Positions 348 through 48,547 of a DNA stretch of 64,000 bases are shown here, one piece after another. The position numbers were made by a program, and so were the translations under genes. Position 1 is the stretch's first letter; every line of letters begins with the position of its first letter. Under the pieces are notes generated by a model, which was given only the letters and a program-made list of their open reading frames with translations, did not search any database and was not told the DNA's origin. This stretch comes from a virus (lineage: Duplodnaviria; Caudoviricetes), in IMG/VR virus record IMGVR_UViG_3300037762_000184, positions 1 to 64,000 of that record, one strand, 5' to 3'.

Positions 348-683
348 CTACTCCTCCTCCCGCCCATCGGGGAGGGCGGCCCGAATGCGCCCGTGCTGGA
401 GGATGGAGTCCACCATCCAGTCGTAGCCACAGAAGCCGTCCGACGCCCTGCGCAGCTTGCGGGCGGTAGGCGCGTCCACCTCCTCGGCCCGGACTGCAGC
501 CGCCCAACCGTCACCGAAGTGGTACGTGTAGTACCCGCCGCCAGGGGGCGCGACGGGCGAGTCGTCAGGCCGAGTCGGCGGCTTGCGAAAGGACCGGACG
601 ATCACGTACCTCTTCGCCGCGCCGCTCCACTTGCCGTTCCAGGAGGCGACGCTGGGCATGGACAGGGCGAATGCGACCTGCAT
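348..683 (-). CDS. hypothetical phage protein
   Basis: abutting start/stop with both neighbours; MPSVASWNGKWSG segment. Confidence 0.65.
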   Translation of the reverse strand: MQVAFALSMPSVASWNGKWSGAAKRYVIVRSFRKPPTRPDDSPVAPPGGGYYTYHFGDGWAAAVRAEEVDAPTARKLRRASDGFCGYDWMVDSILQHGRIRAALPDGREEE

Positions 684-1052
684 CTAGTCGCCCCTTTGAT
701 TGTGCCGATCCGGTTCCATGCCGGCGCGCTGATAGATCAGCGCCACCATCGCTTCGGCGGCCTTAATCCCCGCCGAGGTAGCAGCGACACCGAACGTCAA
801 ATCGATGCTCGATTTCCCCCACTCCGGGTGGAAGAGGGCCACCTCCAACTGGCAGGCGAAGCGCTCTCCTGCACCCTTGGTGTGGCGGTGGCAGTCGTAG
901 AGGCCGAGGTTGAGGAAGTACCGCGTCGCCTCGCCCACCTCAACTCGCCGCTGGAAGAAGCGGTCGGCGTTCGACAGCACCACTGGAGAACCCGGGAACT
1001 CCCGATAGCCGGCAGCCAGAATCGTCTCGACGATCGCCTGTTCCTCGCTCAC
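684..1052 (-). CDS. hypothetical protein
   Basis: GTG start overlapping upstream stop, GGAGAG SD; globular composition. Confidence 0.6.
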   Translation of the reverse strand: MSEEQAIVETILAAGYREFPGSPVVLSNADRFFQRRVEVGEATRYFLNLGLYDCHRHTKGAGERFACQLEVALFHPEWGKSSIDLTFGVAATSAGIKAAEAMVALIYQRAGMEPDRHNQRGD

Positions 1053-1282
1053 TTCGTCTCCTCTCCGCCGCCCCGCACCACCCGGATGAGCGCGAGCACG
1101 GTCAGGCATTTCGGGCACGTCACGGCCTCATCGCGGATGGTCCAGCTCGCTCGCCGGCCAGAGATCGCGCGGGGAAACTTGAAGCAGAGCGCGCTCACAT
1201 TGCCGCGGTCGTCCATCAGGTGCGCCCGGTGGTAGAACTTCGCGTCCCCGTAGGGGTCGGTTTTCCGCTTCGGCCGGGTCAT
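1049..1282 (-). CDS. small Cys/His (zinc-binding-like) protein
   Basis: H...C...CxxC pattern (HLMD, ALCF, VTCPKC); coupled overlaps. Confidence 0.6.
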   Translation of the reverse strand: MTRPKRKTDPYGDAKFYHRAHLMDDRGNVSALCFKFPRAISGRRASWTIRDEAVTCPKCLTVLALIRVVRGGGEETK

Positions 1283-1539
1283 CAGGAGTGCTCTCCGCCG
1301 CCCCGGAGGGGCGACAACAGCGCCAGCAGGGCCTCGACGCGCCGCCCGAGAAAGCCGTTGATCTCGCCGCTAAGGTTGATCCAGCGGTGGTTTGCCCAGC
1401 CCTGCAATTGGTAGGAGCCATTCCTCATGCGGATCAGTCGCTGTTGGAATGGTCTGCGAACGCCGACGCGCTCTTCCTCCCATGAGTCCAGGACCGTGAA
1501 CGGAAGGCGCACGTCGCGCGCCTTGGTTGCCTTGGTCAT
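1282..1539 (-). CDS. hypothetical protein
   Basis: ATG 1539 with GGAGGAAGG SD; 3' part of the 1282-2130 ORF. Confidence 0.55.
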   Translation of the reverse strand: MTKATKARDVRLPFTVLDSWEEERVGVRRPFQQRLIRMRNGSYQLQGWANHRWINLSGEINGFLGRRVEALLALLSPLRGGGEHS

Positions 1540-1796
1540 CCTTCCTCCCCGCCGCTCCGCCGCTCCGGCAGCATCCGCCAGTACCGAGCCGGAGCCTCCG
1601 GCAGGGGCTCCAGCGGGACAAGCCCCTCCTCCTTGCAGATCAACTCGTGACCGTCCATGTTGGCGTGAAGGGCCTTCAGCACGCCGGTTAGCGAGTCCGC
1701 GCTGGCGCAGAGGTCGAACTCCAAGCACTGAGCCACCCACCTCTCGGCGTCGGTTTCGCGGAAGCAGACGATCGTCATCGCGGCCTTCGTCATCAC
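1536..1796 (-). CDS. HicB-like (RNase H-like fold) antitoxin-domain protein
   Basis: WVAQCLEFDLCASADSLTGVLKAL resembles the HicB N-terminal pattern. Confidence 0.55.
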   Translation of the reverse strand: MMTKAAMTIVCFRETDAERWVAQCLEFDLCASADSLTGVLKALHANMDGHELICKEEGLVPLEPLPEAPARYWRMLPERRSGGEEG

Positions 1797-2389
1797 GTCT
1801 CCGTTCTCTTCGCGGGGCTCCGCCGGGACGGCTCCTCACCCCGCAGCAGCCTGTCGAGCGGTTCGTGGTCGATACCGAGCCCTGCGTACTTCGAGGGCTC
1901 TGCCGCATCGTTCTGCTGCTGGTCGTCGTCGAGCAGCCGGCCGAAGATGTTGATTGCCGTGTCGCGAATGTAGACAGGCCGCAGCAGGTCGCGGAGAGAG
2001 TCGAAGAGGGCCTGATTGACTCGTCGCGCGAGGGGCGATGCTTCGCGCCAGTTCTCGGCGCGCGGGTTGCGGAAGTCGCTCCTGACGCCCTCCAGCGCGA
2101 AGTACCCGACGCCGTAGGCCAGCGCCGCACCGTGGGTCACCACTCGCAGGAACACGTCGGGCTCCGCTGTCGTCAATGCGTAGGCGGCGAGGTCTTTGTA
2201 GGGGTCAGAGCCGCCGGCTGGCGGGCCAAAACGACGCCACAGGTATGCGAATGCCACCAGCCCGGACCCTCCATCCTTCGCACGCTCGCCAAGGGCGTCG
2301 ACTGCTAACGCGTGGCCGTCGACAAGGTTGTCTCCGAATCCGAGGCAACCAAAGACGGGGCCGGGGAAGCGGGTCACCTTTTCAACCAT
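1793..2389 (-). CDS. hypothetical protein
   Basis: ATG 2389 with AGGAGAG SD, coupled overlaps. Confidence 0.6.
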   Translation of the reverse strand: MVEKVTRFPGPVFGCLGFGDNLVDGHALAVDALGERAKDGGSGLVAFAYLWRRFGPPAGGSDPYKDLAAYALTTAEPDVFLRVVTHGAALAYGVGYFALEGVRSDFRNPRAENWREASPLARRVNQALFDSLRDLLRPVYIRDTAINIFGRLLDDDQQQNDAAEPSKYAGLGIDHEPLDRLLRGEEPSRRSPAKRTET

Positions 2390-2600
2390 TGCAACTCTCC
2401 TTGCTCGCGCTCCGCCGGGACGGCGAGAGCCGGTCGTCGATCCGCGCCCGGTACTCCTGCTCGGCGGCGGCGTCTTCGAGGGCGAGGCGAATCCAGTCAC
2501 CGAGCTTGCGGTCCACGGCGTCGGCCAGGGCCTGCCATCGCGTACGCTGCGCTGGTGTGGCGCGTAAGCTCAACCGCTCCGTTTTCTGCGTGTCTCGCAT
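2382..2600 (-). CDS. ribbon-helix-helix DNA-binding protein, divergent from integrase
   Basis: ERLSLRATPAQRTRWQALADAVDRKLGDWIRLAL: beta-strand plus two helices, RHH pattern. Confidence 0.7.
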   Translation of the reverse strand: MRDTQKTERLSLRATPAQRTRWQALADAVDRKLGDWIRLALEDAAAEQEYRARIDDRLSPSRRSASKESCNG

Positions 2601-2616
2601 TGTCAGACTCTAGCAC

Positions 2617-2814
2617 GTTCGCGCACGGTTTGCACCTCCATGACGGACCCGGAACAGCAAGTCGTTGACTCTAAAAGACCTTCACTCATCGCGCCGCGTT
2701 CTCCATTGCGACATGCCATCCCCTGCGGGGAGTGTCCCTCCTCTGCCATATCGTCTCCCGGCGCCGGATTACCGCCCTCAACACTACCCGTGGTGTGGAT
2801 CGGTTCGCGCACGG
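2617..2814. other. putative attP region
   Basis: 12-bp direct repeat GTTCGCGCACGG at 2617-2628 and 2803-2814 directly upstream of the integrase, as for arm-type sites. Confidence 0.4.
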
Positions 2815-2845
2815 GGAGCGCACCGGCGATGTAGACTCGCCGGCC

Positions 2846-4162
2846 GTGCCGAGGCTGCCGGACACCGACCGCGCGATTCGAGGGCTCCAGCCCGCCGACC
2901 GCCCCGTTGACTATCGGGACGGCGGCTTTCACCGGGGCGGCGGATCGCTGTTCCTGCGCGTCGCCGTGACGGGTCGGAAGCGGTGGTACTTCACCTACAA
3001 CCGGCCGAGCGAGGTGGTCAAGGCTCGCGGCTCCCACTACCCGCGGGCGACCATTGCGGGCGACTTGTTCCCGACGGTCGGCCTCGCCGCCGCGCGCGCC
3101 TGGGCCGCGGGTATGCGATCGCAGGTCTTCGCCAACATCGACCCCAAGCCGGCCCGGATCGCCCAGCCGACGCTCCGCGAGCTGATTGCCGAATACGGTC
3201 ACCGCGTCGGCAAGAGGGCGAGGAGTTGGCCACAGGCGGACACCTACCTCAAGGCGCACGTCCTCGATTGGGGCAAGGACAGGCTCGGCGTGCCGTTGGG
3301 CGATATGCCGGTGGGGGCCATCACCACGCCGATGCTCGTGGACTGTCTCGACGCCGTGGTCGAAGGCGGGGCGCCGGCCAGCGCGAACCGCCTGAAGTCC
3401 ATCCTGTCGCCGATCTTCAAGTGGGCGCAGCAGCGAGGACGCGTCGAGGCCAACCCGCTTGCCGGCCTGCCACTGCCGGCGCCGAAGCGGAGCCGCGACC
3501 GCACGTTGTCGGATCGGGAGATCATCACGTTCTGGCGCCTCGCCGAGGAGGTGGCGCCACACCGCGCCTCGTGGGGCCTGCGCCTCGTGCTCGCCACCGG
3601 GCAGCGACCCGGTGAGGTTCTGTGCTTCGAGCCCTCGGAGCTGGCCTGGGAGCACGCGGTCAACTTGCCGGACGGATCGCGCTGGGAGGGGGCCGCCTGG
3701 ATCATCCCGAAGGCGAAGCACAAGACCGGACGGCGTCTCATCGCCACCGGCAAGGCCGACCAGGCGCGAGACCACGTGGTGCCGCTCTCCGGCCTCGCCG
3801 CCCAACTCTTCCGCCTCGCCCTCGACAATCCCGTCTCCGACGACTACCCGCTGCTCAAGACCCCGCCGCCGGCCGACATGAACCCGGCCTTCCACGGGCG
3901 CAACGATCTCGGAACCTTCCGCCGCGAGATGGAGCACTGGACGCCACAAGACCTTCGCCGCACCGCCTACACCGGTATGACATCCCTCGGCATCCCGCGC
4001 GATACGGTCGAGGCGGTGGTCGGGCACAGCGTCCGCGGCGTGGCCGGAGTCTATGACCGCTACTCCTACCTGAGGGAGAAGGCGCGCGCGCTCGAAGCTT
4101 GGGGGCGGCACCTGGATGCTCGGGTTAGCGGCCGAGAGGCGGCCGTGGTTCGGATCGGCTAG
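2846..4162 (+). CDS. int: tyrosine integrase with N-terminal arm-binding domain (P4/IntA-like)
   Basis: arm domain (TDRAIRGLQP...LFLRVAVTGRKRWYFTY); catalytic GQRPGE, QDLRR (H to Q), VGH, GVYDR; GTG 2846 preferred over ATG 2732. Confidence 0.92.
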   Translation: MPRLPDTDRAIRGLQPADRPVDYRDGGFHRGGGSLFLRVAVTGRKRWYFTYNRPSEVVKARGSHYPRATIAGDLFPTVGLAAARAWAAGMRSQVFANIDPKPARIAQPTLRELIAEYGHRVGKRARSWPQADTYLKAHVLDWGKDRLGVPLGDMPVGAITTPMLVDCLDAVVEGGAPASANRLKSILSPIFKWAQQRGRVEANPLAGLPLPAPKRSRDRTLSDREIITFWRLAEEVAPHRASWGLRLVLATGQRPGEVLCFEPSELAWEHAVNLPDGSRWEGAAWIIPKAKHKTGRRLIATGKADQARDHVVPLSGLAAQLFRLALDNPVSDDYPLLKTPPPADMNPAFHGRNDLGTFRREMEHWTPQDLRRTAYTGMTSLGIPRDTVEAVVGHSVRGVAGVYDRYSYLREKARALEAWGRHLDARVSGREAAVVRIG

Positions 4163-4164
4163 CG

Positions 4165-4401
4165 TCACTGCGCGGCTCGCTTCGCCAAGCTCGACAGCTC
4201 CAGCAGTTGCCGACGCATCCCCTCTTCCGCCCTGACCGCCGCTGCGAGCTCTCGCTCCAGCCGCTTCGCGTCCTTGAGCTTGGTGACGGGCCACTCCTCG
4301 GTAGTCCAACGACCGCCGCAACCCAAACACTCGCGACGCCGACGCGCGCCCCTCTTCTCGAGGACGCGGACGTTGGCGGAGTTGCAGGAAGGGCAGAGCA
4401 T
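4165..4401 (-). CDS. NrdR-like zinc-ribbon protein without ATP-cone
   Basis: MLCPSCNSANVRVLEKRGARRRRECLGCGGRWTTEE matches the NrdR N-terminal Zn ribbon. Confidence 0.7.
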   Translation of the reverse strand: MLCPSCNSANVRVLEKRGARRRRECLGCGGRWTTEEWPVTKLKDAKRLERELAAAVRAEEGMRRQLLELSSLAKRAAQ

Positions 4402-4454
4402 TGTTCAGGCCGCCAGCAGCTCCGGCAGGGCCTCCATAAGGAGGGGGGCGGAGG

Positions 4455-43438: not shown

Positions 43439-43514
43439 TGCGGTTCCAATAGTACCGCATCGGTGCTTGTGCGCGCAACAAGCACCGGCCACCCTCATTT
43501 CGGGACTAGTGCGC

Positions 43515-46500
43515 GTGCCGAAAACCACAACCAACGGAAGCGGCAACGGCGCGGCCGAACCTCGCCTGCCGACCAGCCGTCTGCGCGCCATGGGCTCAGC
43601 GCTGGTGGCGCGCGCACGGCTTGCCTCACGGGCCGGGCTGAGCTTCGGCGGTAAGCGCGACTTCTACACTGCGCTCGGTTACGAGCGCGACCTCACAATT
43701 CAGCACTACCGCGAGCTATACGAACGCGGCGGTATCGCTCGAAAACTGGTCGACCTCATCCCGACCCTGGCATGGACAGCCGGCGGCGCCGACATCGTGG
43801 AAGACCCGGACCCCGGCGAGCTCACGGAATTCGAGACGCAGGCTGCCGAGCTGTTCGCGCGCGTCGACGCCTGGCCTCGCTTCCGCCGCGCGGACATCCT
43901 TTCTCGTCTCGGCCGCTACTCCGTTCTGCTGCTCGGTACGTCAGACCTTGAAACGCAGGCGGACTTCGCGCAGCCGCTGTCGAAGCTCTCCGGTCCGGAC
44001 GACATCCTCTACCTCACGCCGAGAGCCGAGAGCCACGCGAAGATCTGCTCTCTCGTCAAGAAGCCTTCCGACCCGCGCTTCGGCCTGCCTGAGTTCTACA
44101 ACGTCGATCTGGGGCACGACGAAGACAGCAAGGCGCTCCTCTCCGGAGGGACGCAGAAAACCCACTGGACGCGCGTGGTCCACATTGCCGGCGGGCTGCT
44201 CGATAACGACGTGTACGGCGAGCCGGCCCTGCGTGCGTTGTGGAACCTCCTCTTCAACCTCGAAAAGCTGCTCGGCGGCGGCTCAGAGGCGACGTGGAAG
44301 CGGATGAACCCGCTGACGCTCTTCGACCTGAGCCCCGATGCCGTACTCGGCGACACGCCCGCGGAGATCGAGGAAGCCGAAGAGGCGTTGGAGGACGAGA
44401 TCGAAGAGCTGGTGCATGGGTACCGTTCCTATGCCCAGGCCACTGGTCTCGAAGTAAAGAGCATCAGTCAGGCGGTGCCCAACTTCGGGCCGAACGCGGC
44501 GGCAATCGAACGCCATATCGCGGGCACCGGAAACATCCCCCATCGCGTCCTCTTCGGAACGGAGCGCGGCGAGCTAGCCAGCGCGCAGGACCGCTCGAAT
44601 CTCAGCGACAACGTCCAGGGCTACCGGGACAGCCACTGCAACGTGGTAGTCCGCCAGTTCCTCGCCCGCTTGATTGAATACGGCGCTCTTCCCGGGCCGG
44701 TCAAGCATGAGCTGGTATGGCCTGAGATGGAAGAGATGAGCGAGCCCGAAAAGGCCGACGTGGTCAGCAAGATGGCGACCGCGAACAAGGCCAACGTCGA
44801 CGCAGGCGGCGGCCTGATCGTCGCCGCGAACGAGTTGCGGAACGACGTACTCGGCAAAGGGCCTATCGAAGAGATCGAAAACTCCGGGGTGGCCGAGGGA
44901 GGCGGCGACGGTGGTCCCTCCTCTGCCGTCGCCGCCTCCCTCCGGGCTGCGAAGCTCAGGCTGTGCCGGAAGCGCGGGCTGGACTTCGGGCCTGACTCTC
45001 CGGCCGCGCTTGCCGGTAACGAGGAGCCAGAGTGGCGCGCAGTCCACCGTGCTGCCGACTTGCACATGGAGTCTCTGGCGCGGGCTGTCGTCGGCGCCTG
45101 GGATGACGGAGCGGCGGAGATCGACGACGGCGCCCTTGAGGACGCGCTCGCCGCCGGCAACTTCGGTGCCGCCGAAACCGTCGCGCTCGCCGGTGTCACT
45201 GCCGCCGAGCAACGTCTCGCCGAGATCCTGCCTGACCGACTACTCGCCACCCTGGTAGATGGTGGCCTCGCCGCTCTGCGGTCCGCTCGGTCGCGCGGTT
45301 CTTTCTTCCGCCGCGCCGCGGGATTCTCGGCGCAGTTCGATGCGACCAACCCGCGCGCCGTCACGTGGGCGGAGGAGCGTTCCTCGCTGCTGATCACGGA
45401 GATCGGCGTCGAAACGGTGTCGGCGATGCAGGCGCTCATCGCGCAGGGCCTCGCCGAGGGCATCCCGCCCCGGAAGCTGGCGCAGCAGATTCGGGCTGCG
45501 GTAGGGCTGCGCTCGGATCAGGTGTCGGCCGTCCAGAACCTCATCACGGAGTTGCAGGCGGCGAAGCCCGGCTCGCTGGTGACGCGCTTCCCTCCGCGGG
45601 AGGGCCTGCGTGGCTCTGCCGGCTTCAAGGCTCGCATTCCGAAGAGCGGCATCACGCAGGAGTGGTTGGACCGGCAGGCGGCGCGGTACTCGACGATGCA
45701 GCGGAACTACCGAGCCAGAACAATCGCTCGCAGTGAAACAATGAGAAGTGCGAACGAGGGTGTCCGCGAGCTTTGGAGGCAGGGCCAAGAGTCCGGTCAG
45801 CTCCCAGCGGATATCAAGCGGGTCTGGCTTCACAACACTGATCGCCACGCAGACCGGGCCGGGGTGGCGGTAGGCATTGACGAGCCTTGGCCGTGGGGAA
45901 CCGAGCCGGGCGAAGAGGTGAACTGCTTCCTACCTGGAACGGATGTCAGCGGCGCGTTCGTGGCTGGCCTAAAAACCCTCTATGCGGGGCCGGCTATCGA
46001 AGTAGCCACCCGGCAGGGTCACCGGCTGCGCCTCACGCCCAATCACCCCGTACTGACTTCGCAAGGTTGGTTGCCGGCGAAGAGTCTCCGCAAGGGCCAG
46101 CAGCTTGTCTGCTGCCTTCCGGAGGTTGATCTTCTGTCGAGCGGAGCCCTGCTCGGGGGCGAACGTCCCGCCAGCGAGGCGTTCTCTCGGCCGAGTCCAT
46201 CCGTGCCGCGAGCCGTTGGGCGACGTGGCGCAGACGACGATCAGGGACCAACCCTGATTGAGGACGTATTCGAAGCGCTTGCGTCTCAGGGCGCCTTGGC
46301 GCGCAAAGGCTGTACTGGTCTCGATCTCCACGGCGATGCGAAGTGGTCGGATGGCGAGGTCCAGATTGTAGGGGCCGAGAGGGAACTGGTGCGTTACCTT
46401 GATTCCGCCGCGTCTCAGGAGAGCAGCGAGCTCATGTTCGAGAGGGCTGGTGTGATTCGCGCGCTCGCAGTTGGTGCGAGCCCTGGCAATCCTGGCTTCC

Positions 46501-46874
46501 AGAGGGTCGACGCGCCCCCGTCTGGCTTTCCACGCGGCGCTGAGTTGGCGGCGGACAGCCTCCCCGCCCTGCGCCTTGATGGACCTCCACTTCAGCCTCT
46601 GCGCGTCGGCCCTGCCGCGTATCTGGACACCGTTAAGCCGAAAGCGCCTCTCGATACACCTGCGGCTGAGTCCCGTTTCGTCGGCGAGCTGCTTCATGGA
46701 GGCGCCGGCCTTGTAGCGTTCGATGAGGTTGTGCAGGTTCGGGATTTCTCGTTCCGCGGACACGTCTTCGATCTCCAGTCTGTGACGGGTTGGCTTTCCG
46801 CTGGCAACATTATCACAAGCAACTGTGGCTGCGCACAGGGCATCGAAGATCCCGCGCGGGCGGAGGCGGCGTGA
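43515..46874 (+). CDS. portal protein (DUF1073-type) fused to Mu gpF-like head-morphogenesis domain containing an intein
   Basis: YERGGIARKLVD.IP..AW, RFGLPEFY, IPHRVLFG; RARTIARSETMRSANEG...KRVW...PGEEVN|CGC; start uncertain. Confidence 0.88.
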   Translation: MPKTTTNGSGNGAAEPRLPTSRLRAMGSALVARARLASRAGLSFGGKRDFYTALGYERDLTIQHYRELYERGGIARKLVDLIPTLAWTAGGADIVEDPDPGELTEFETQAAELFARVDAWPRFRRADILSRLGRYSVLLLGTSDLETQADFAQPLSKLSGPDDILYLTPRAESHAKICSLVKKPSDPRFGLPEFYNVDLGHDEDSKALLSGGTQKTHWTRVVHIAGGLLDNDVYGEPALRALWNLLFNLEKLLGGGSEATWKRMNPLTLFDLSPDAVLGDTPAEIEEAEEALEDEIEELVHGYRSYAQATGLEVKSISQAVPNFGPNAAAIERHIAGTGNIPHRVLFGTERGELASAQDRSNLSDNVQGYRDSHCNVVVRQFLARLIEYGALPGPVKHELVWPEMEEMSEPEKADVVSKMATANKANVDAGGGLIVAANELRNDVLGKGPIEEIENSGVAEGGGDGGPSSAVAASLRAAKLRLCRKRGLDFGPDSPAALAGNEEPEWRAVHRAADLHMESLARAVVGAWDDGAAEIDDGALEDALAAGNFGAAETVALAGVTAAEQRLAEILPDRLLATLVDGGLAALRSARSRGSFFRRAAGFSAQFDATNPRAVTWAEERSSLLITEIGVETVSAMQALIAQGLAEGIPPRKLAQQIRAAVGLRSDQVSAVQNLITELQAAKPGSLVTRFPPREGLRGSAGFKARIPKSGITQEWLDRQAARYSTMQRNYRARTIARSETMRSANEGVRELWRQGQESGQLPADIKRVWLHNTDRHADRAGVAVGIDEPWPWGTEPGEEVNCFLPGTDVSGAFVAGLKTLYAGPAIEVATRQGHRLRLTPNHPVLTSQGWLPAKSLRKGQQLVCCLPEVDLLSSGALLGGERPASEAFSRPSPSVPRAVGRRGADDDQGPTLIEDVFEALASQGALARKGCTGLDLHGDAKWSDGEVQIVGAERELVRYLDSAASQESSELMFERAGVIRALAVGASPGNPGFQRVDAPPSGFPRGAELAADSLPALRLDGPPLQPLRVGPAAYLDTVKPKAPLDTPAAESRFVGELLHGGAGLVAFDEVVQVRDFSFRGHVFDLQSVTGWLSAGNIITSNCGCAQGIEDPARAEAA
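45924..46823 (+). mobile_element. 300-aa intein in head-morphogenesis domain
   Basis: block A CFLPGT, block B LRLTPNHPVLT..GW, block F RGHVFDLQS, block G IITSN followed by Cys; splicing restores PGEEVNCGC. Confidence 0.92.
45969..46763 (-). CDS. HTH + DUF559/Vsr-like endonuclease encoded antisense within the intein
   Basis: HTH GASMKQLADETGLSRRCIERRF; SPLEHELA...QFPLGPYNLDLAI..RIAVEIE...GW; GGAG SD 9 nt upstream of GTG. Confidence 0.85.
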   Translation of the reverse strand: MSAEREIPNLHNLIERYKAGASMKQLADETGLSRRCIERRFRLNGVQIRGRADAQRLKWRSIKAQGGEAVRRQLSAAWKARRGRVDPLEARIARARTNCERANHTSPLEHELAALLRRGGIKVTHQFPLGPYNLDLAIRPLRIAVEIETSTAFARQGALRRKRFEYVLNQGWSLIVVCATSPNGSRHGWTRPRERLAGGTFAPEQGSARQKINLRKAADKLLALAETLRRQPTLRSQYGVIGREAQPVTLPGGYFDSRPRIEGF

Positions 46875-48547
46875 CCACTCCCCGCTTCACCATCCTCGCC
46901 GCGCAGGTCAACCCGGCGCAGATCCATACGGCGAGAGCCGAAGACCGCGACTACCTGGTTCTGCCGGTCGTCGCGCTGGTCGGCGACTCCGTGGTTCGTC
47001 CTCTCAACTCTGACGGTCCGGAGTTCGTGCCGCTTCGCGAGCTTGCCGTGGCTCCCGGTCAGTGGGCTGGGCGCCCGATCGTCGCCGATCATCCGGCCGG
47101 CGGAACCGGCTCCGCCAACGACCCAAAGGTGTTGGAGGCGCAGCGCTACGGCTGGGTTTACTGCTCGGATATTCAGAACGGGAAGCTCTGCGCCGAGGGC
47201 TGGCTCGACCCCGAGCGCGCCGAAAAGATCGGTGGCGATGCCGTCCGCGTCGTCGATGTCGCCCGTCGAGCGATGGCTGGCGAGGAGGTCGACCCGGTCG
47301 AGGTGTCGGTCGGCTGCTGGGTGACGCTGATCCGCGAAGACGGCGTCTCGCCCAGCGGCGTGCCCTATGAGTACCGATGGACAGGCGTCGCCAGCGATCA
47401 CCTTGCCGTCGGCCTGAACGGGGCCACAGGGGCATGCAGCGTCGACTCAGGGTGCGGAGCGCCAAGAGCGGCGCAAGCCCTTGAGGCGGCCGCACTTTCC
47501 GGCGAGAACGCCACGAGCCCGCAGCCCCCGATCCAGATCAACGAACCGAAGGCGGTGCTCCGCGCTGCCGAGCAGGAGAAAAACACGATGAAGCTTCCGA
47601 AGCGAATCCTCGACGCGCTGGCCGCGACGCTGGGTTTCCGAGCCTCAGCCGAGGACGAAGGCCCATCCGATGTCGACCTCCGCGACGCCCTGTACGCAGC
47701 TCTTCGCGCCATCGAGGCGGGTTTTGACTGGATTGCGGAGGTCTATCCGGACAGCTCGACCGTGATCTACACCACGTTTCCGGAGGACGCGATGCTCTGG
47801 TGGCGCCGGAGCTACGCCGTGGCCGAGGACGGGACGGTGACGCTCGCCGACGACCGCGAACAGGTCGAGCCGGTGACGCGGTACGAGCCGCTCGCCGCGA
47901 AGACGGACGGCGACCCTGAGCCCGAGCAGAAGCCTACCAATCACCCCGCGACCGCGAAGGCGGCTTGCGGATGTCCGACGAAGGGCGAAGGGCTTGCCGC
48001 CCCCGCCCCGAAACAGAGCGAAGGAGTGACCATGGAGAAGGTCAAGGAACTGGTGGGGCGGCTGATCGCCAACGAGGCGAGCCCCTTCACTGACGAGGAC
48101 CAGGCGGGGCTGGAGGCGCTCAGCGAGGCGAAGCTGGAGGCTCTCGACGCAGCGCTCCAGCCGGGCGAGTCCGCACCCGAGCCGGAGCCGGCACCCGCGC
48201 CGACGCCGGTGGCCGAAGAGCCGGCCGACGACGACGACACCGTCAAGCTCTCGCGAGAGGAGTACGACGACATCAAGGCGTCCGCCGCAGCCTACAAGGC
48301 GCAGCAGGCCGCGATGAAGGCGAAGCTCGTGGCCCAGCTCAAGGGCGCGCAGGACGCCTACAGCGAGGCCGAACTGGCGGCGATGCCCATCTTCGCGCTG
48401 GAGAAGGTCGCCAAGCTGGCGAAGGTCGAGCCGGCGCCTCAGCCGAGCTATGCCGGGCGTGGTCTGGCGAGCGACGAAACCGACAACCGCGTCCCGCCGC
48501 CGCCCGACTTCGGCGAGGCCGTCCGCGCTCTCCGTAGCGTGGCGTAA
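46871..48547 (+). CDS. prohead protease/scaffold (DUF2213-like)
   Basis: W.GRPIVADHP, EVSVG, DHLAV...GACS; acidic scaffold C-terminus; position between portal and capsid. Confidence 0.85.
   Translation: MTTPRFTILAAQVNPAQIHTARAEDRDYLVLPVVALVGDSVVRPLNSDGPEFVPLRELAVAPGQWAGRPIVADHPAGGTGSANDPKVLEAQRYGWVYCSDIQNGKLCAEGWLDPERAEKIGGDAVRVVDVARRAMAGEEVDPVEVSVGCWVTLIREDGVSPSGVPYEYRWTGVASDHLAVGLNGATGACSVDSGCGAPRAAQALEAAALSGENATSPQPPIQINEPKAVLRAAEQEKNTMKLPKRILDALAATLGFRASAEDEGPSDVDLRDALYAALRAIEAGFDWIAEVYPDSSTVIYTTFPEDAMLWWRRSYAVAEDGTVTLADDREQVEPVTRYEPLAAKTDGDPEPEQKPTNHPATAKAACGCPTKGEGLAAPAPKQSEGVTMEKVKELVGRLIANEASPFTDEDQAGLEALSEAKLEALDAALQPGESAPEPEPAPAPTPVAEEPADDDDTVKLSREEYDDIKASAAAYKAQQAAMKAKLVAQLKGAQDAYSEAELAAMPIFALEKVAKLAKVEPAPQPSYAGRGLASDETDNRVPPPPDFGEAVRALRSVA

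Follow-up and report, generated by a model that had tools for sequence, protein, structure and literature searches.

The locus described here raises the question of whether the strand opposite an intein can hold a second, functional gene, and what that gene would do. The window (the whole stretch of viral DNA that was analysed, 64,000 nucleotides) comes from an uncultured, 84-kb phage with 67% GC. Its intein lies in a structural gene, and the features of the locus are summarized in Table 1. On the evidence presented below, the element is quite likely a mobile class-1 intein in a portal-MuF gene, accompanied by a separate antisense homing nuclease with helix-turn-helix (HTH) and Vsr/DUF559-like parts.

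Table 1. Coordinates of the intein, the antisense gene and associated features in the window.
Feature	Position	Strand	Details
Host gene, portal-MuF (head morphogenesis) fusion precursor	43467..46874	+	ORF, 1135 aa including the intein
Class-1 intein	45924..46823	+	300 aa, exactly 300 codons; Cys1 ... Ser299-Asn300, then Cys at +1
N-terminal splicing region, blocks A and B	45924..46118	+	TPNH = residues 38-41; pLDDT 95-98
Sense segment, intein residues 109-155	46248..46388	+	F116, D134, H136-G137-D138; candidate for selection of its own, opposite the nuclease core
C-terminal splicing region, blocks F (GHVFDLQ) and G (...NIITSN)	46674..46823	+	pLDDT 87-98
C-extein, CGCAQG...	46824..46874	+	16 aa and stop (TGA), which overlaps the next gene's GTG start
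Antisense nuclease gene	45969..46763	-	264 aa; GTG start; TAG stop (sense Leu16 codon CTA)
HTH DNA-binding module, nuclease residues 10-56	46596..46736	-	HTH_58, 4.3e-5, at the gathering score
Vsr/DUF559-like nuclease core, residues 107-178	46230..46445	-	Pfam, fold layout, Foldseek, residue conservation
Nuclease translation start	46761..46776	-	GGAG (46773-46776), 9-nt spacer, GTG (46761-46763); reverse complement of block F codons His-Val-Phe-Asp-Leu-Gln
Candidate extended -10-like element, TGTGATAAT	46809..46817	-	46-54 nt upstream of the start; block G codons Asn-Ile-Ile-Thr

The host ORF matches Phage_portal_3 in Pfam (6.8e-25) and the C-terminal half of its N-extein matches a PHROG for head morphogenesis (4.6e-27); its homologues in GenBank are annotated as MuF-like minor capsid or head morphogenesis proteins. 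The initial annotation had placed a 300-aa intein with blocks A, B, F and G in the PGEEVN|CGC motif of this gene, and that reading was confirmed by the ORF, by conserved splicing residues and by a model with the HINT fold. In the ORF translation the intein splits the host motif N|C(R/G)C as ...PGEEVN|CFLPGT...NIITSN|CGC. The Cys at position 1 (codon at 45924-45926) is Cys in 89 of 89 aligned relatives, C1, G22, G32, H41 and G48 are invariant in 72 sequences and T38 is at least 90% conserved. Block B carries the TxxH motif (T38-P-N-H41), the C-terminal Asn is followed by Cys at +1 (N300|C, 46821-46826), and 59 of 73 unique relatives continue with CRC from +1. The penultimate His of block G is absent from the window's intein, which has Ser299, as do 67% of the relatives. 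This His is commonly substituted in working inteins, and thus Ser299 represents a deviation from class 1 and not an exclusion from it. The only Pfam family matched by the sense translation was Intein_splicing (2.1e-6; 28.1 bits, below the gathering cut-off of 35.8), and 69 of 72 translations from relatives likewise matched Intein_splicing only (E <= 0.01, best 4e-11). The AF2 model superimposes on the Mtu RecA mini-intein 3ifj (Z 11.7, rmsd 1.4 A, 105 aligned residues), and the 60 chains at Z >= 8 are nearly all inteins or Hedgehog proteins. The conserved junction residues and the open frame point to protein splicing. A split intein or fractured gene is ruled out by the single continuous ORF and by the count of sense stops, which is zero in 73 unique inteins.

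The antisense ORF lies wholly within the intein in exact codon register (45969-45924 is divisible by 3), and the two share the same 795 bases and the same codon triplets. The openness of this frame in the window alone proves nothing, because a chance in-register antisense ORF of 202 aa (45240..45848) also occurs in the extein of this GC-rich phage. The antisense frame might be open and conserved only as the mirror of a constrained, GC-rich sense frame, with no antisense protein behind it. In high-GC genes, chance keeps the in-register antisense frame open more often than any other, the extein ORF is an example of this, and the conservation of the C-terminal tail of the ORF (QYGVIG) mirrors that of block B (TPNHPV). 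This reading was weighed against approximately 220 related loci with GC from 0.36 to 0.72, consisting of five database homologues, about 135 loci fetched with a nuclease profile and 80 loci picked blind. All but one of these loci have the same layout. In the homologues and the profile-fetched loci, apart from locus L083 and contigs truncated at their ends, the in-register frame opposite the nuclease ORF stays open along its whole length and belongs to an intein at ...N|CRC of a MuF-like gene.

The related loci speak against a mere mirror frame for several reasons. First, the nuclease frame is open in loci as low as 36% GC, and the antisense stops of 73 unique full inteins (GC 0.36-0.72) are confined to the extreme ends. 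The sense codons TTA, CTA and TCA, which read backwards are stops, number 0 of 19,416 overlapped codons versus 379 of 33,083 extein codons (1.15%); the naive chance probability of this absence is about 1e-107, a value that ignores the shared ancestry of the loci. Secondly, the position within the codon that varies most changes along the intein. In sense codons 1-60 and 281-300 it is the sense third position. In codons 141-260 it is the sense first position, which is the antisense third, and there the antisense BLOSUM scores (0.7-2.4) exceed those of the sense frame (-0.3 to 1.1). The N-terminal splicing region has sense BLOSUM scores of 2.1-2.5, and the selected frame of codons 281-300 is again the sense frame. 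This result was unchanged with either alignment. Third, free-standing homologues of the nuclease exist without an opposite intein, one of them annotated as a gene. Two such genes, in L083 and in Acinetobacter phage IME285, each immediately follow, in convergent orientation, a MuF gene that has no intein and whose NCRC or MCKC site is intact; their mirror frames contain 17 stops (L083) and 12 stops (IME285). In addition, the ORF has Pfam and fold matches to nucleases and a conserved start codon and Shine-Dalgarno (SD) sequence, both described below. The free-standing homologues and the codon-position pattern effectively refute the mirror-frame reading, which is considered highly improbable.

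Two further observations were made. In the window itself, GC by codon position (+ register) is 0.70/0.49/0.80 in the extein and 0.76/0.52/0.66 inside the nuclease ORF; the GC3 excess passes from the sense frame to the antisense frame inside the ORF. The 80 blind loci were chosen from 550 IMG/VR matches by the intein N-terminus alone, and antisense nuclease homology was found in 80 of 80. Judged from these sequence patterns, the antisense ORF is a real protein-coding gene and not a high-GC shadow ORF, and the patterns show purifying selection on both strands. The initial annotation had named a lack of conservation, or stops in homologues, as grounds for refutation; the ORF proved to be conserved and stop-free in divergent homologues, and none of the refuting conditions that were checked spoke against the reading. 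Both frames remain open because each strand avoids TTA, CTA and TCA. The locus is thus a natural case of long antiparallel double coding, with these three codons barred on both strands as its rule.

The initial annotation had also described the 264-aa product as a protein with an HTH and a DUF559/Vsr-type nuclease motif, and had proposed HMM searches of both translations. The antisense translation matched HTH_58, MTES_1575 and DUF559 in the window and, at lower E-values, in relatives. Residues 109-177 match MTES_1575 REase (PF18741) at 2.1e-3 (18.5 bits versus a gathering score of 38.2) and DUF559 (PF04480) at 0.064 (13.6 bits versus 20.6), and the best antisense relatives reach 2.2e-7 for MTES_1575, 3.1e-6 for DUF559 and 6.3e-6 for HTH_58. 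The window's nuclease is at best a distant member of the Vsr/DUF559/MTES_1575 superfamily. The AF2 model (overall pLDDT 76.5) has three helices at residues 10-43 (pLDDT 88-89) and a core of helix 107-118, strands 124-129, 132-138 and 143-148, helix 157-169 and strand 173-178. This helix-three strands-helix-strand layout places D135 on strand 2 and E146 on strand 3; both are 99% conserved, and alignment to the DUF559 structure 3hrl puts them on its D and E. The family-conserved residues E109, Q126, Y132, N133, D135, E146 and R163 are all present in the window's protein. Foldseek returned the Vsr structures 1vsr (prob 0.99, TM 0.62 on target) and 1cw0 (prob 0.97), I-Bth0305I (3r3p, prob 0.97, TM 0.57 on target) and, also among the top matches, 3hrl, with weak E-values of 0.02-0.1 overall and 0.02-0.05 for 1cw0, 1vsr and 3r3p. 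The His-containing motifs of DUF559 (ExDGxxH) and of EDxHD enzymes are absent from the nuclease family; the strand corresponding to E-D-x-H-D reads A-V-E-(I/V)-x, and neither His nor Asp is conserved beyond it.

The nuclease family is widespread. At E <= 1e-30, 675 related proteins were found in a library of 50%-identity cluster representatives, and members occur in Pseudomonas, Cronobacter, Klebsiella and Vibrio phages and in hundreds of metagenomic contigs. By tblastn, homologues with 33-36% identity (E 2e-9 to 5e-14) lie antisense under MuF-like or capsid genes of Gordonia phages and of Mycobacterium phage Sejanus; in Gordonia phages Fosterous and Vivi2 and in Sejanus they are antisense ORFs under the MuF-like genes. 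GenBank phage records list only the MuF-like CDS over the nuclease gene, so that standard annotation hides a real protein-coding gene.

Expression signals for the nuclease appear to be embedded in the intein's own C-terminal blocks. The GGAG SD and GTG start, noted earlier from the sequence, were located as listed in Table 1: GGAG is the reverse complement of the Leu-Gln codons of block F and GTG that of its His codon. The start column holds ATG in 48 and GTG in 15 of 73 relatives (63 together). The block F His codon is CAT in 76% versus 38% elsewhere in the host ORFs, and the Leu codon is CTC in 93% versus a background of 33%. Outside the antisense ORF, synonymous codons are also skewed at Ala293 (GCA 0.48 versus 0.11) and Ser299 (AGC 0.77 versus 0.32). 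The family antisense consensus is TTGCTa-N17-(TGc)TAcAAT ... GGAGG-N9-ATG, and in most relatives a candidate extended -10 promoter is written in block G codons on the antisense strand. In the window the usual -10 position of the family (46794-46799) is degenerate and TGTGATAAT is the sole alternative; a two-hexamer scan of the window found no promoter. Independent expression of the nuclease is plausible because the start codon, the SD and, in most relatives, the extended -10 are conserved antisense within blocks F-G. Expression of the homing enzyme would then be uncoupled from that of the late structural gene.

The proposed mechanism is as follows. The plus strand would be read straight through the element as one precursor, from which the intein would excise itself and join ...PGEEVN to CGC.... 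The minus strand would yield the separate HTH and Vsr/DUF559-like protein from its own ribosome binding site and start. The most likely targets of this protein are MuF alleles without an intein, carried by co-infecting phages or prophages and cut near the DNA that encodes NCRC. When the break is repaired from a copy that bears the intein, intein and nuclease gene would spread as one. Transcription of the nuclease gene and its timing, splicing, cleavage of this target and homing itself are inferred.

Several observations bear on whether the nuclease acts in this way. The unit of intein and nuclease also occurs at L229, where its host gene is GT25-like and unrelated; this speaks for joint movement of the two. 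Nuclease copies with internal stops (L159, L204, L209) or without the core (L194) were found, as expected of a homing element. A close intein-less relative of the window's phage was not found. In the comparison with locus L002, the intein is 50% and the flanking gene 69% identical, without clear conflict, so that recent mobility of the window's copy is not shown. The gene could be real but inactive or silent, decaying in this phage while the intein is inherited vertically. The degenerate -10 position, the GTG start in place of the majority ATG, the decaying copies at other loci and the vertical-looking inheritance reported for most VSR-type inteins (bioRxiv 10.1101/2025.01.02.630785) would fit such a relic, but its ORF is intact across 264 codons, the seven family-conserved residues are all kept, GC3 favours the antisense frame, and an alternative extended -10 and the GGAG SD are present. 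We regard a relic as unlikely. The gene could also be functional without homing, as an HTH regulator, a nickase or repair factor, or a weapon against competitors lodged in the intein. Such roles would suit the Vsr and DUF559 relatives, which are mostly repair proteins or of unknown function, as well as the missing catalytic His motifs, the family variants with 2-4 HTH modules, the linkage of the nuclease gene to the MuF 3' end even without an intein, and a target site that is wholly inferential. The near-obligate pairing with one intein family in the blind sample and the unit in the GT25-like gene count against them, the degenerate copies fit a selfish life cycle, and Vsr-like enzymes such as I-Bth0305I are proven homing endonucleases (PMC3239194). 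A function other than homing is thus judged rather improbable, and a homing nuclease is the preferred reading.

The initial annotation had regarded the antisense arrangement as a departure from the normal in-frame nucleases, but it is not unprecedented. Gosselin, Arsenault and Gogarten (2025; bioRxiv 10.1101/2025.01.02.630785) described antisense VSR-like endonucleases in minor-capsid inteins of actinophages. As in those inteins, the MuF-like minor capsid gene of the window is interrupted by a contiguous intein, the opposite strand carries an ORF of its own whose predicted structure matches Vsr (1CW0) and 3R3P, and the in-frame middle is of the kind the preprint describes as having no recognisable fold. 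Unlike those, its host gene is a portal-MuF fusion of an uncultured phage and its family reaches beyond actinophages; in the window the nuclease ORF, together with its signals, extends over blocks B, F and G. Antisense LAGLIDADG ORFs in the Synechocystis DnaX and Chloroflexus SpoVR-like inteins (Gorbalenya 1998 and Gogarten 2002, as cited in that preprint) are likewise opposite the frame of a contiguous intein, with a LAGLIDADG fold where the fold here is a Vsr-like PD-(D/E)xK. The layout is not new. Because the discovery is already in the literature, the value of the present locus is in confirmation, wider scope and mechanistic detail: the family is found in phages other than actinophages, expression signals are built into the intein codons, a free-standing gene is a candidate for the precursor, and part of the sense middle appears to be under selection.

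Other known systems share single features with the locus. In "fractured genes" a free-standing Vsr-like (EDxHD) endonuclease gene lies between the halves of a split intein (Dassa et al. 2009, PMC2677866). The phage setting and a Vsr-related endonuclease as its own gene at the usual endonuclease position are the same, but those are two ORFs with nothing read on both strands, whereas the window's intein frame is continuous and fully overlaps the nuclease gene. I-Bth0305I, a Vsr-like EDxHD homing endonuclease of a phage recA group I intron (Taylor et al. 2011, PMC3239194), has a similar catalytic-domain fold (3r3p) and a separate N-terminal DNA-binding region; it is intron-encoded on the same strand, whereas the family described here lacks the EDxHD motif and is antisense to the intein. 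Canonical bifunctional inteins with an in-frame LAGLIDADG or HNH domain, e.g. PI-SceI, PI-PfuI and TliVMA (PMC8966425), also have a HINT domain broken at the usual site by endonuclease-devoted sequence. They carry both activities on one polypeptide, whereas here each strand would give its own polypeptide, so that the two could be controlled separately at transcription.

The free-standing nuclease is a candidate precursor of the antisense gene. Its convergent position beside intein-less MuF genes suggests a route of backward entry into the intein. The preprint (bioRxiv 10.1101/2025.01.02.630785) proposed that such elements arose when a free-standing endonuclease gene invaded an intein, and the route is relevant to the "splicing first" view of intein origins that it discusses.

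The central sense region had been described as open and without a nuclease motif. The second part holds, since only Intein_splicing was found, but the region is not merely open, and several of its residues seem to be under selection themselves. The segment at residues 109-155 is modelled with a helix (112-122) and strands (125-129 and 142-150) at pLDDT 83-95. Antisense synonymous sites are fixed in this segment (GAA 0.98, GTG 0.91, GCC 0.97, GTC 1.00), and the same sites are not fixed in the free-standing nuclease homologues. Selection seems to act on the segment itself, on bases that also encode the nuclease core. If so, the stretch would be double-coding in antiparallel fashion, the same codons would be under purifying selection for both products, and the sense mini-domain might, for example, stabilise the split HINT fold or contact DNA or the nuclease. 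Three selected layers, consisting of the nuclease on the minus strand, a piece of the intein middle of about 45 residues (109-155) on the plus strand, and the promoter, SD and start within block F-G codons, are proposed tentatively, as a possibility short of even likelihood.

The initial annotation read this element as a bidirectionally coding one, an intein whose endonuclease is encoded on the opposite strand, and the comparative evidence supports this reading overall. The genome containing the window is a complete phage genome of 83,652 bp with terminal repeats. The host ORF encodes a portal protein fused to a MuF/SPP1-gp7-like head-morphogenesis domain. Both the intein in this MuF-like gene, with blocks A, B (TPNH), F and G, Cys1, a terminal Asn and a +1 Cys, and the codon-aligned antisense ORF fully inside it were confirmed. 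Intein_splicing was the sole Pfam match of the sense translation in the window and of 69 of the 72 sense translations of the family. In the AF2 model of the sense translation (72 sequences, pLDDT 74.8), residues 1-65 and 251-300 form a HINT core predicted with confidence, and the Mtu RecA mini-intein was superposed on it with a Z-score of 11.7 (rmsd 1.4 Å, 105 residues, VIA-align).

Coordinates of the coding features in the window and in the homologous loci fetched for comparison
Feature	Position	Strand	Description
Portal-MuF host ORF (window)	43467..46874	+	1135 aa; Phage_portal_3 6.8e-25; PHROG head morphogenesis 4.6e-27
Intein (window)	45924-46823	+	300 codons; ...PGEEVN|CFLPGT...NIITSN|CGCAQG...
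Antisense nuclease ORF (window)	46763 (GTG) to 45969 (TAG)	-	264 aa; wholly within intein, shared codon triplets
Free-standing nuclease homologue (L083)	2986-3774	+	262 aa; convergent, slightly overlaps MuF 3' end
MuF gene, intein-less (L083)	3715-4452	-	FNCRC site intact
Free-standing nuclease homologue (Acinetobacter phage IME285, L227, MH853786.1)	455-1348	+	annotated, 297 aa; position as in L083
MuF-like gene, intein-less (IME285, L227)	1342-2118	-	ends ...PMCKC...
Intein of the same family (L229)	2414-3772	-	within GT25-like glycosyltransferase gene, not MuF
Antisense nuclease (L229)	2501-3727	+	408 aa, four HTH-like stretches

A shadow of high GC content was considered as an alternative for the antisense ORF. 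Its openness within the window alone proves little, because an in-register antisense ORF of 202 aa is also present in the extein as a chance comparator. The base composition does point to antisense coding within the window ORF: the extein has a GC3 excess (GC by codon position 0.70/0.49/0.80), and inside the antisense ORF (0.76/0.52/0.66) the excess has moved to the first position of the sense codons, equivalent to the third of the antisense codons. All five database homologues (35-53% identity) are antisense within inteins located at the ends of MuF-like genes, and both frames are open in each of them. About 135 further loci were fetched with the nuclease profile from viral, metagenome and genome collections. 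In these loci the in-register opposite frame is open over the whole nuclease ORF and well past its ends, except in L083 and in end-truncated contigs, and the remaining two opposite frames are closed. Antisense stops in the 73 unique complete inteins (263-336 aa, GC 0.36-0.72) are confined to the first 18 codons or lie after the 241st. The sense codons TTA, CTA and TCA, which are stops when reversed, account for 0 of 19,416 overlapped codons vs 379 of 33,083 extein codons in the same genes; the naive chance probability, which ignores the shared ancestry of the loci, is about 1e-107. In addition, a nuclease-blind sample of 80 loci, chosen by the first 64 residues of the intein from 550 IMG/VR matches, had nuclease homology on the antisense strand in every case (80/80). 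The conservation of the antisense ORF in homologues was therefore borne out, and at the level of sequence we consider this comparative evidence decisive for a predicted coding ORF over a high-GC shadow.

Codon alignments built from the sense or from the antisense protein yield one picture. Variability peaks at the sense third position across sense codons 1-60 and 281-300, where BLOSUM scores are higher for the sense protein (2.1-2.5 vs 0.4-1.5). Across codons 141-260 it peaks at the sense first (antisense third) position, and there the antisense protein scores higher (0.7-2.4 vs -0.3 to 1.1). Thus, the splicing blocks are intein-coded and the middle is nuclease-coded. The initial annotation had described the sense middle as open and free of nuclease motifs; the latter holds, but the middle is apparently more than an open frame, as residues 111-150 seem partly selected. 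These residues are predicted with pLDDT 83-95 to form a helix and two strands. Several codons of this segment show stronger fixation on the sense side than on the antisense side. For example, F116 is conserved in 96% of sequences opposite an antisense residue that alternates between E and K (invariably GAA or AAA), and D138 in 89% opposite one that alternates between V and I (invariably NTC). GCC is found at the G137/A144 column in 97% of sequences and GTG at the H136/V145 column in 91%. The two free-standing homologues have other codons at these positions (GCG GTA; GCG CTG). Thus, part of the intein "filler" seems, tentatively and with two controls only, to be selected as protein on the same bases that code for the nuclease core. 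The segment was considered as a possible part of the HINT core; the VIA-align output covers overall ranges. Where conservation affects both frames, the per-column test of synonymous skew is to some extent circular; the columns used were those outside the antisense ORF or those in which one frame toggles while the other is fixed.

The proposal of an HTH and a DUF559/Vsr-type nuclease was supported by several searches. The antisense translation matched the Pfam families HTH_58 (4.3e-5), MTES_1575 (2.1e-3) and DUF559 (0.064), and the best E-values among relatives were 6.3e-6, 2.2e-7 and 3.1e-6, respectively. The antisense protein was modelled by AF2 (7 sequences, pLDDT 76.5) as a three-helix HTH, a helical linker and a core of helix, three strands, helix and strand. 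The top Foldseek matches of this model have weak E-values and are mutually consistent: Vsr (1vsr/1cw0), the catalytic domain of I-Bth0305I (3r3p) and a DUF559 structure (3hrl). Foldseek returned nothing at E <= 0.001 for the sense and antisense models, and the fold assignment is based on the agreement of the best matches and on VIA-align Z-scores. A profile search of PDB sequences with the nuclease returned 3hrl alone (E 0.066). Residues E109, Q126, Y132, N133, D135, E146 and R163 are 90-99% conserved in the family. The family lacks His motifs of the ExDGxxH and EDxHD types and is thus predicted to be a divergent branch of the Vsr-like fold.

Predicted expression signals for the nuclease are written in blocks F and G. 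As first proposed, the GGAG SD and GTG start lie in block F, as reverse complements of Leu-Gln and His codons. The start column of the 73 sequences holds ATG in 48 and GTG in 15, and CAT makes up 76% of the block F His codons vs 38% of all host-ORF His codons. The Leu codon under GGAG(G), which lies 9 nt upstream of the start, is CTC in 93% vs a background of 33%. From 52 ungapped sequences, a consensus TTGCTa-N17-(TGc)TAcAAT (at -59 and -36) was derived for the stretch of intein further upstream, beyond the antisense ORF; it is composed of block G Ser-Asn and Trp-Ile-Ile-Ala codons. At least four of six -10 positions match in 35/52 sequences, and 28/52 have the TG extension. Synonymous codons in this region are skewed (Ala293 GCA 0.48 vs 0.11; Ser299 AGC 0.77 vs 0.32), and since these columns lie outside the antisense ORF, antisense coding cannot account for the skew. 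In the window copy the -36 element is degenerate and an extended -10-like TGTGATAAT lies at 46809-46817. No promoter emerged at 45700-47200 from a two-hexamer sigma-70 scan; the promoter argument is based on the family consensus. The whole candidate expression cassette thus lies within the mobile unit, the window copy being the least certain case. The usual penultimate residue of inteins is His; here (46818-46823; alignment column 299) it is Ser, as in 67% of relatives, and the Ser299 AGC codon contributes to the -35-like TTGCT on the opposite strand.

Two homologues, in the contig L083 and in phage IME285, are free-standing genes. Their mirror frames contain 17 and 12 stops, respectively, vs none in any embedded copy. 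Thus, the nuclease is an autonomous gene, and nuclease codon usage does not explain the open sense frame. A free-standing, convergent endonuclease gene adjoining the site that it presumably targets could plausibly be the precursor, and would account for the backward orientation. The arrangement in L083 and IME285 is a candidate ancestral state and a natural control for double coding.

Elements of the kind seen in the window have been described before. Gosselin, Arsenault and Gogarten (bioRxiv 10.1101/2025.01.02.630785) reported VSR-like endonucleases, matching 1CW0 and 3R3P, that are encoded antisense within full inteins of minor capsid proteins in actinophages; they cite earlier antisense LAGLIDADG cases and propose that free-standing endonuclease genes invade inteins. 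Codon register, start codon and promoters are not discussed there. The additions made here are the family breadth beyond actinophages, statistics on stop avoidance, the frame-switch signature, the predicted expression signals within blocks F and G, the free-standing convergent relatives and possible selection on a sense mini-domain.

In a representative library (one protein per 50%-identity cluster), 675 related proteins were found at E <= 1e-30 and 1,964 at E <= 1e-10. Many have 2-4 HTH modules, and the three long multi-HTH variants sampled are each antisense inside an intein. DNA homologous to the window nuclease lies, unannotated, on the strand opposite the MuF-like genes of Gordonia phages Fosterous, Affeca, Vivi2 and Angelicage and of Mycobacterium phage Sejanus, and likewise in phages of Pseudomonas, Cronobacter, Klebsiella and Vibrio. 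In each of the five GenBank phage records inspected (MH976510.1, JF314845.1, MK511015.1, PQ569648.1, OP172873.1) the homologue is unannotated under a single opposite-strand CDS. A distant relative matching the nuclease core only lies on the chromosome of Prescottella equi DSM 20307 (L060, NZ_LWTX01000001.1, 381722-388153), presumably in a prophage; its opposite open frame is 593 aa and the intein seemingly starts with Ala instead of Cys.

Several IMG/VR contigs keep the intein frame open while the nuclease frame is damaged, by two internal stops in L159 and one each in L204 and L209. In L194, with its intein frame also open, the catalytic core (profile positions 61-180) is missing. All four are probably endonuclease genes in decay, sequencing errors being possible. 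The L229 exteins match the GT25 profile (N-extein positions 4-40, C-extein 70-114, each E ~1e-3), which looks like a host-gene switch of the intein-plus-nuclease unit. Decayed copies and a GT25-like host would fit a selfish, occasionally jumping element. An N-extein search for close relatives of the window phage found one contig (L142), truncated before the intein, and thus no empty-site allele for this lineage. Identities between the window and the homologous locus L002 (intein 50%, nuclease 53%, flanking gene 69%) appear uninformative as to transfer or faster evolution.

The portal and MuF-like domains share a single ORF at 43467-45923 of the window and are separate neighbouring genes in Cronobacter phage ES2 and L083. 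The TGA stop of portal-MuF and the GTG with which the following gene begins share bases (GTGA, 46868-46874), which suggests translational coupling. This downstream gene (558 aa) matches PHROG 760, of unknown function, and is 69% identical to the post-intein gene in L002. Gene 8 of phage Sejanus, which contains a homologous antisense nuclease, is annotated "capsid maturation protease".
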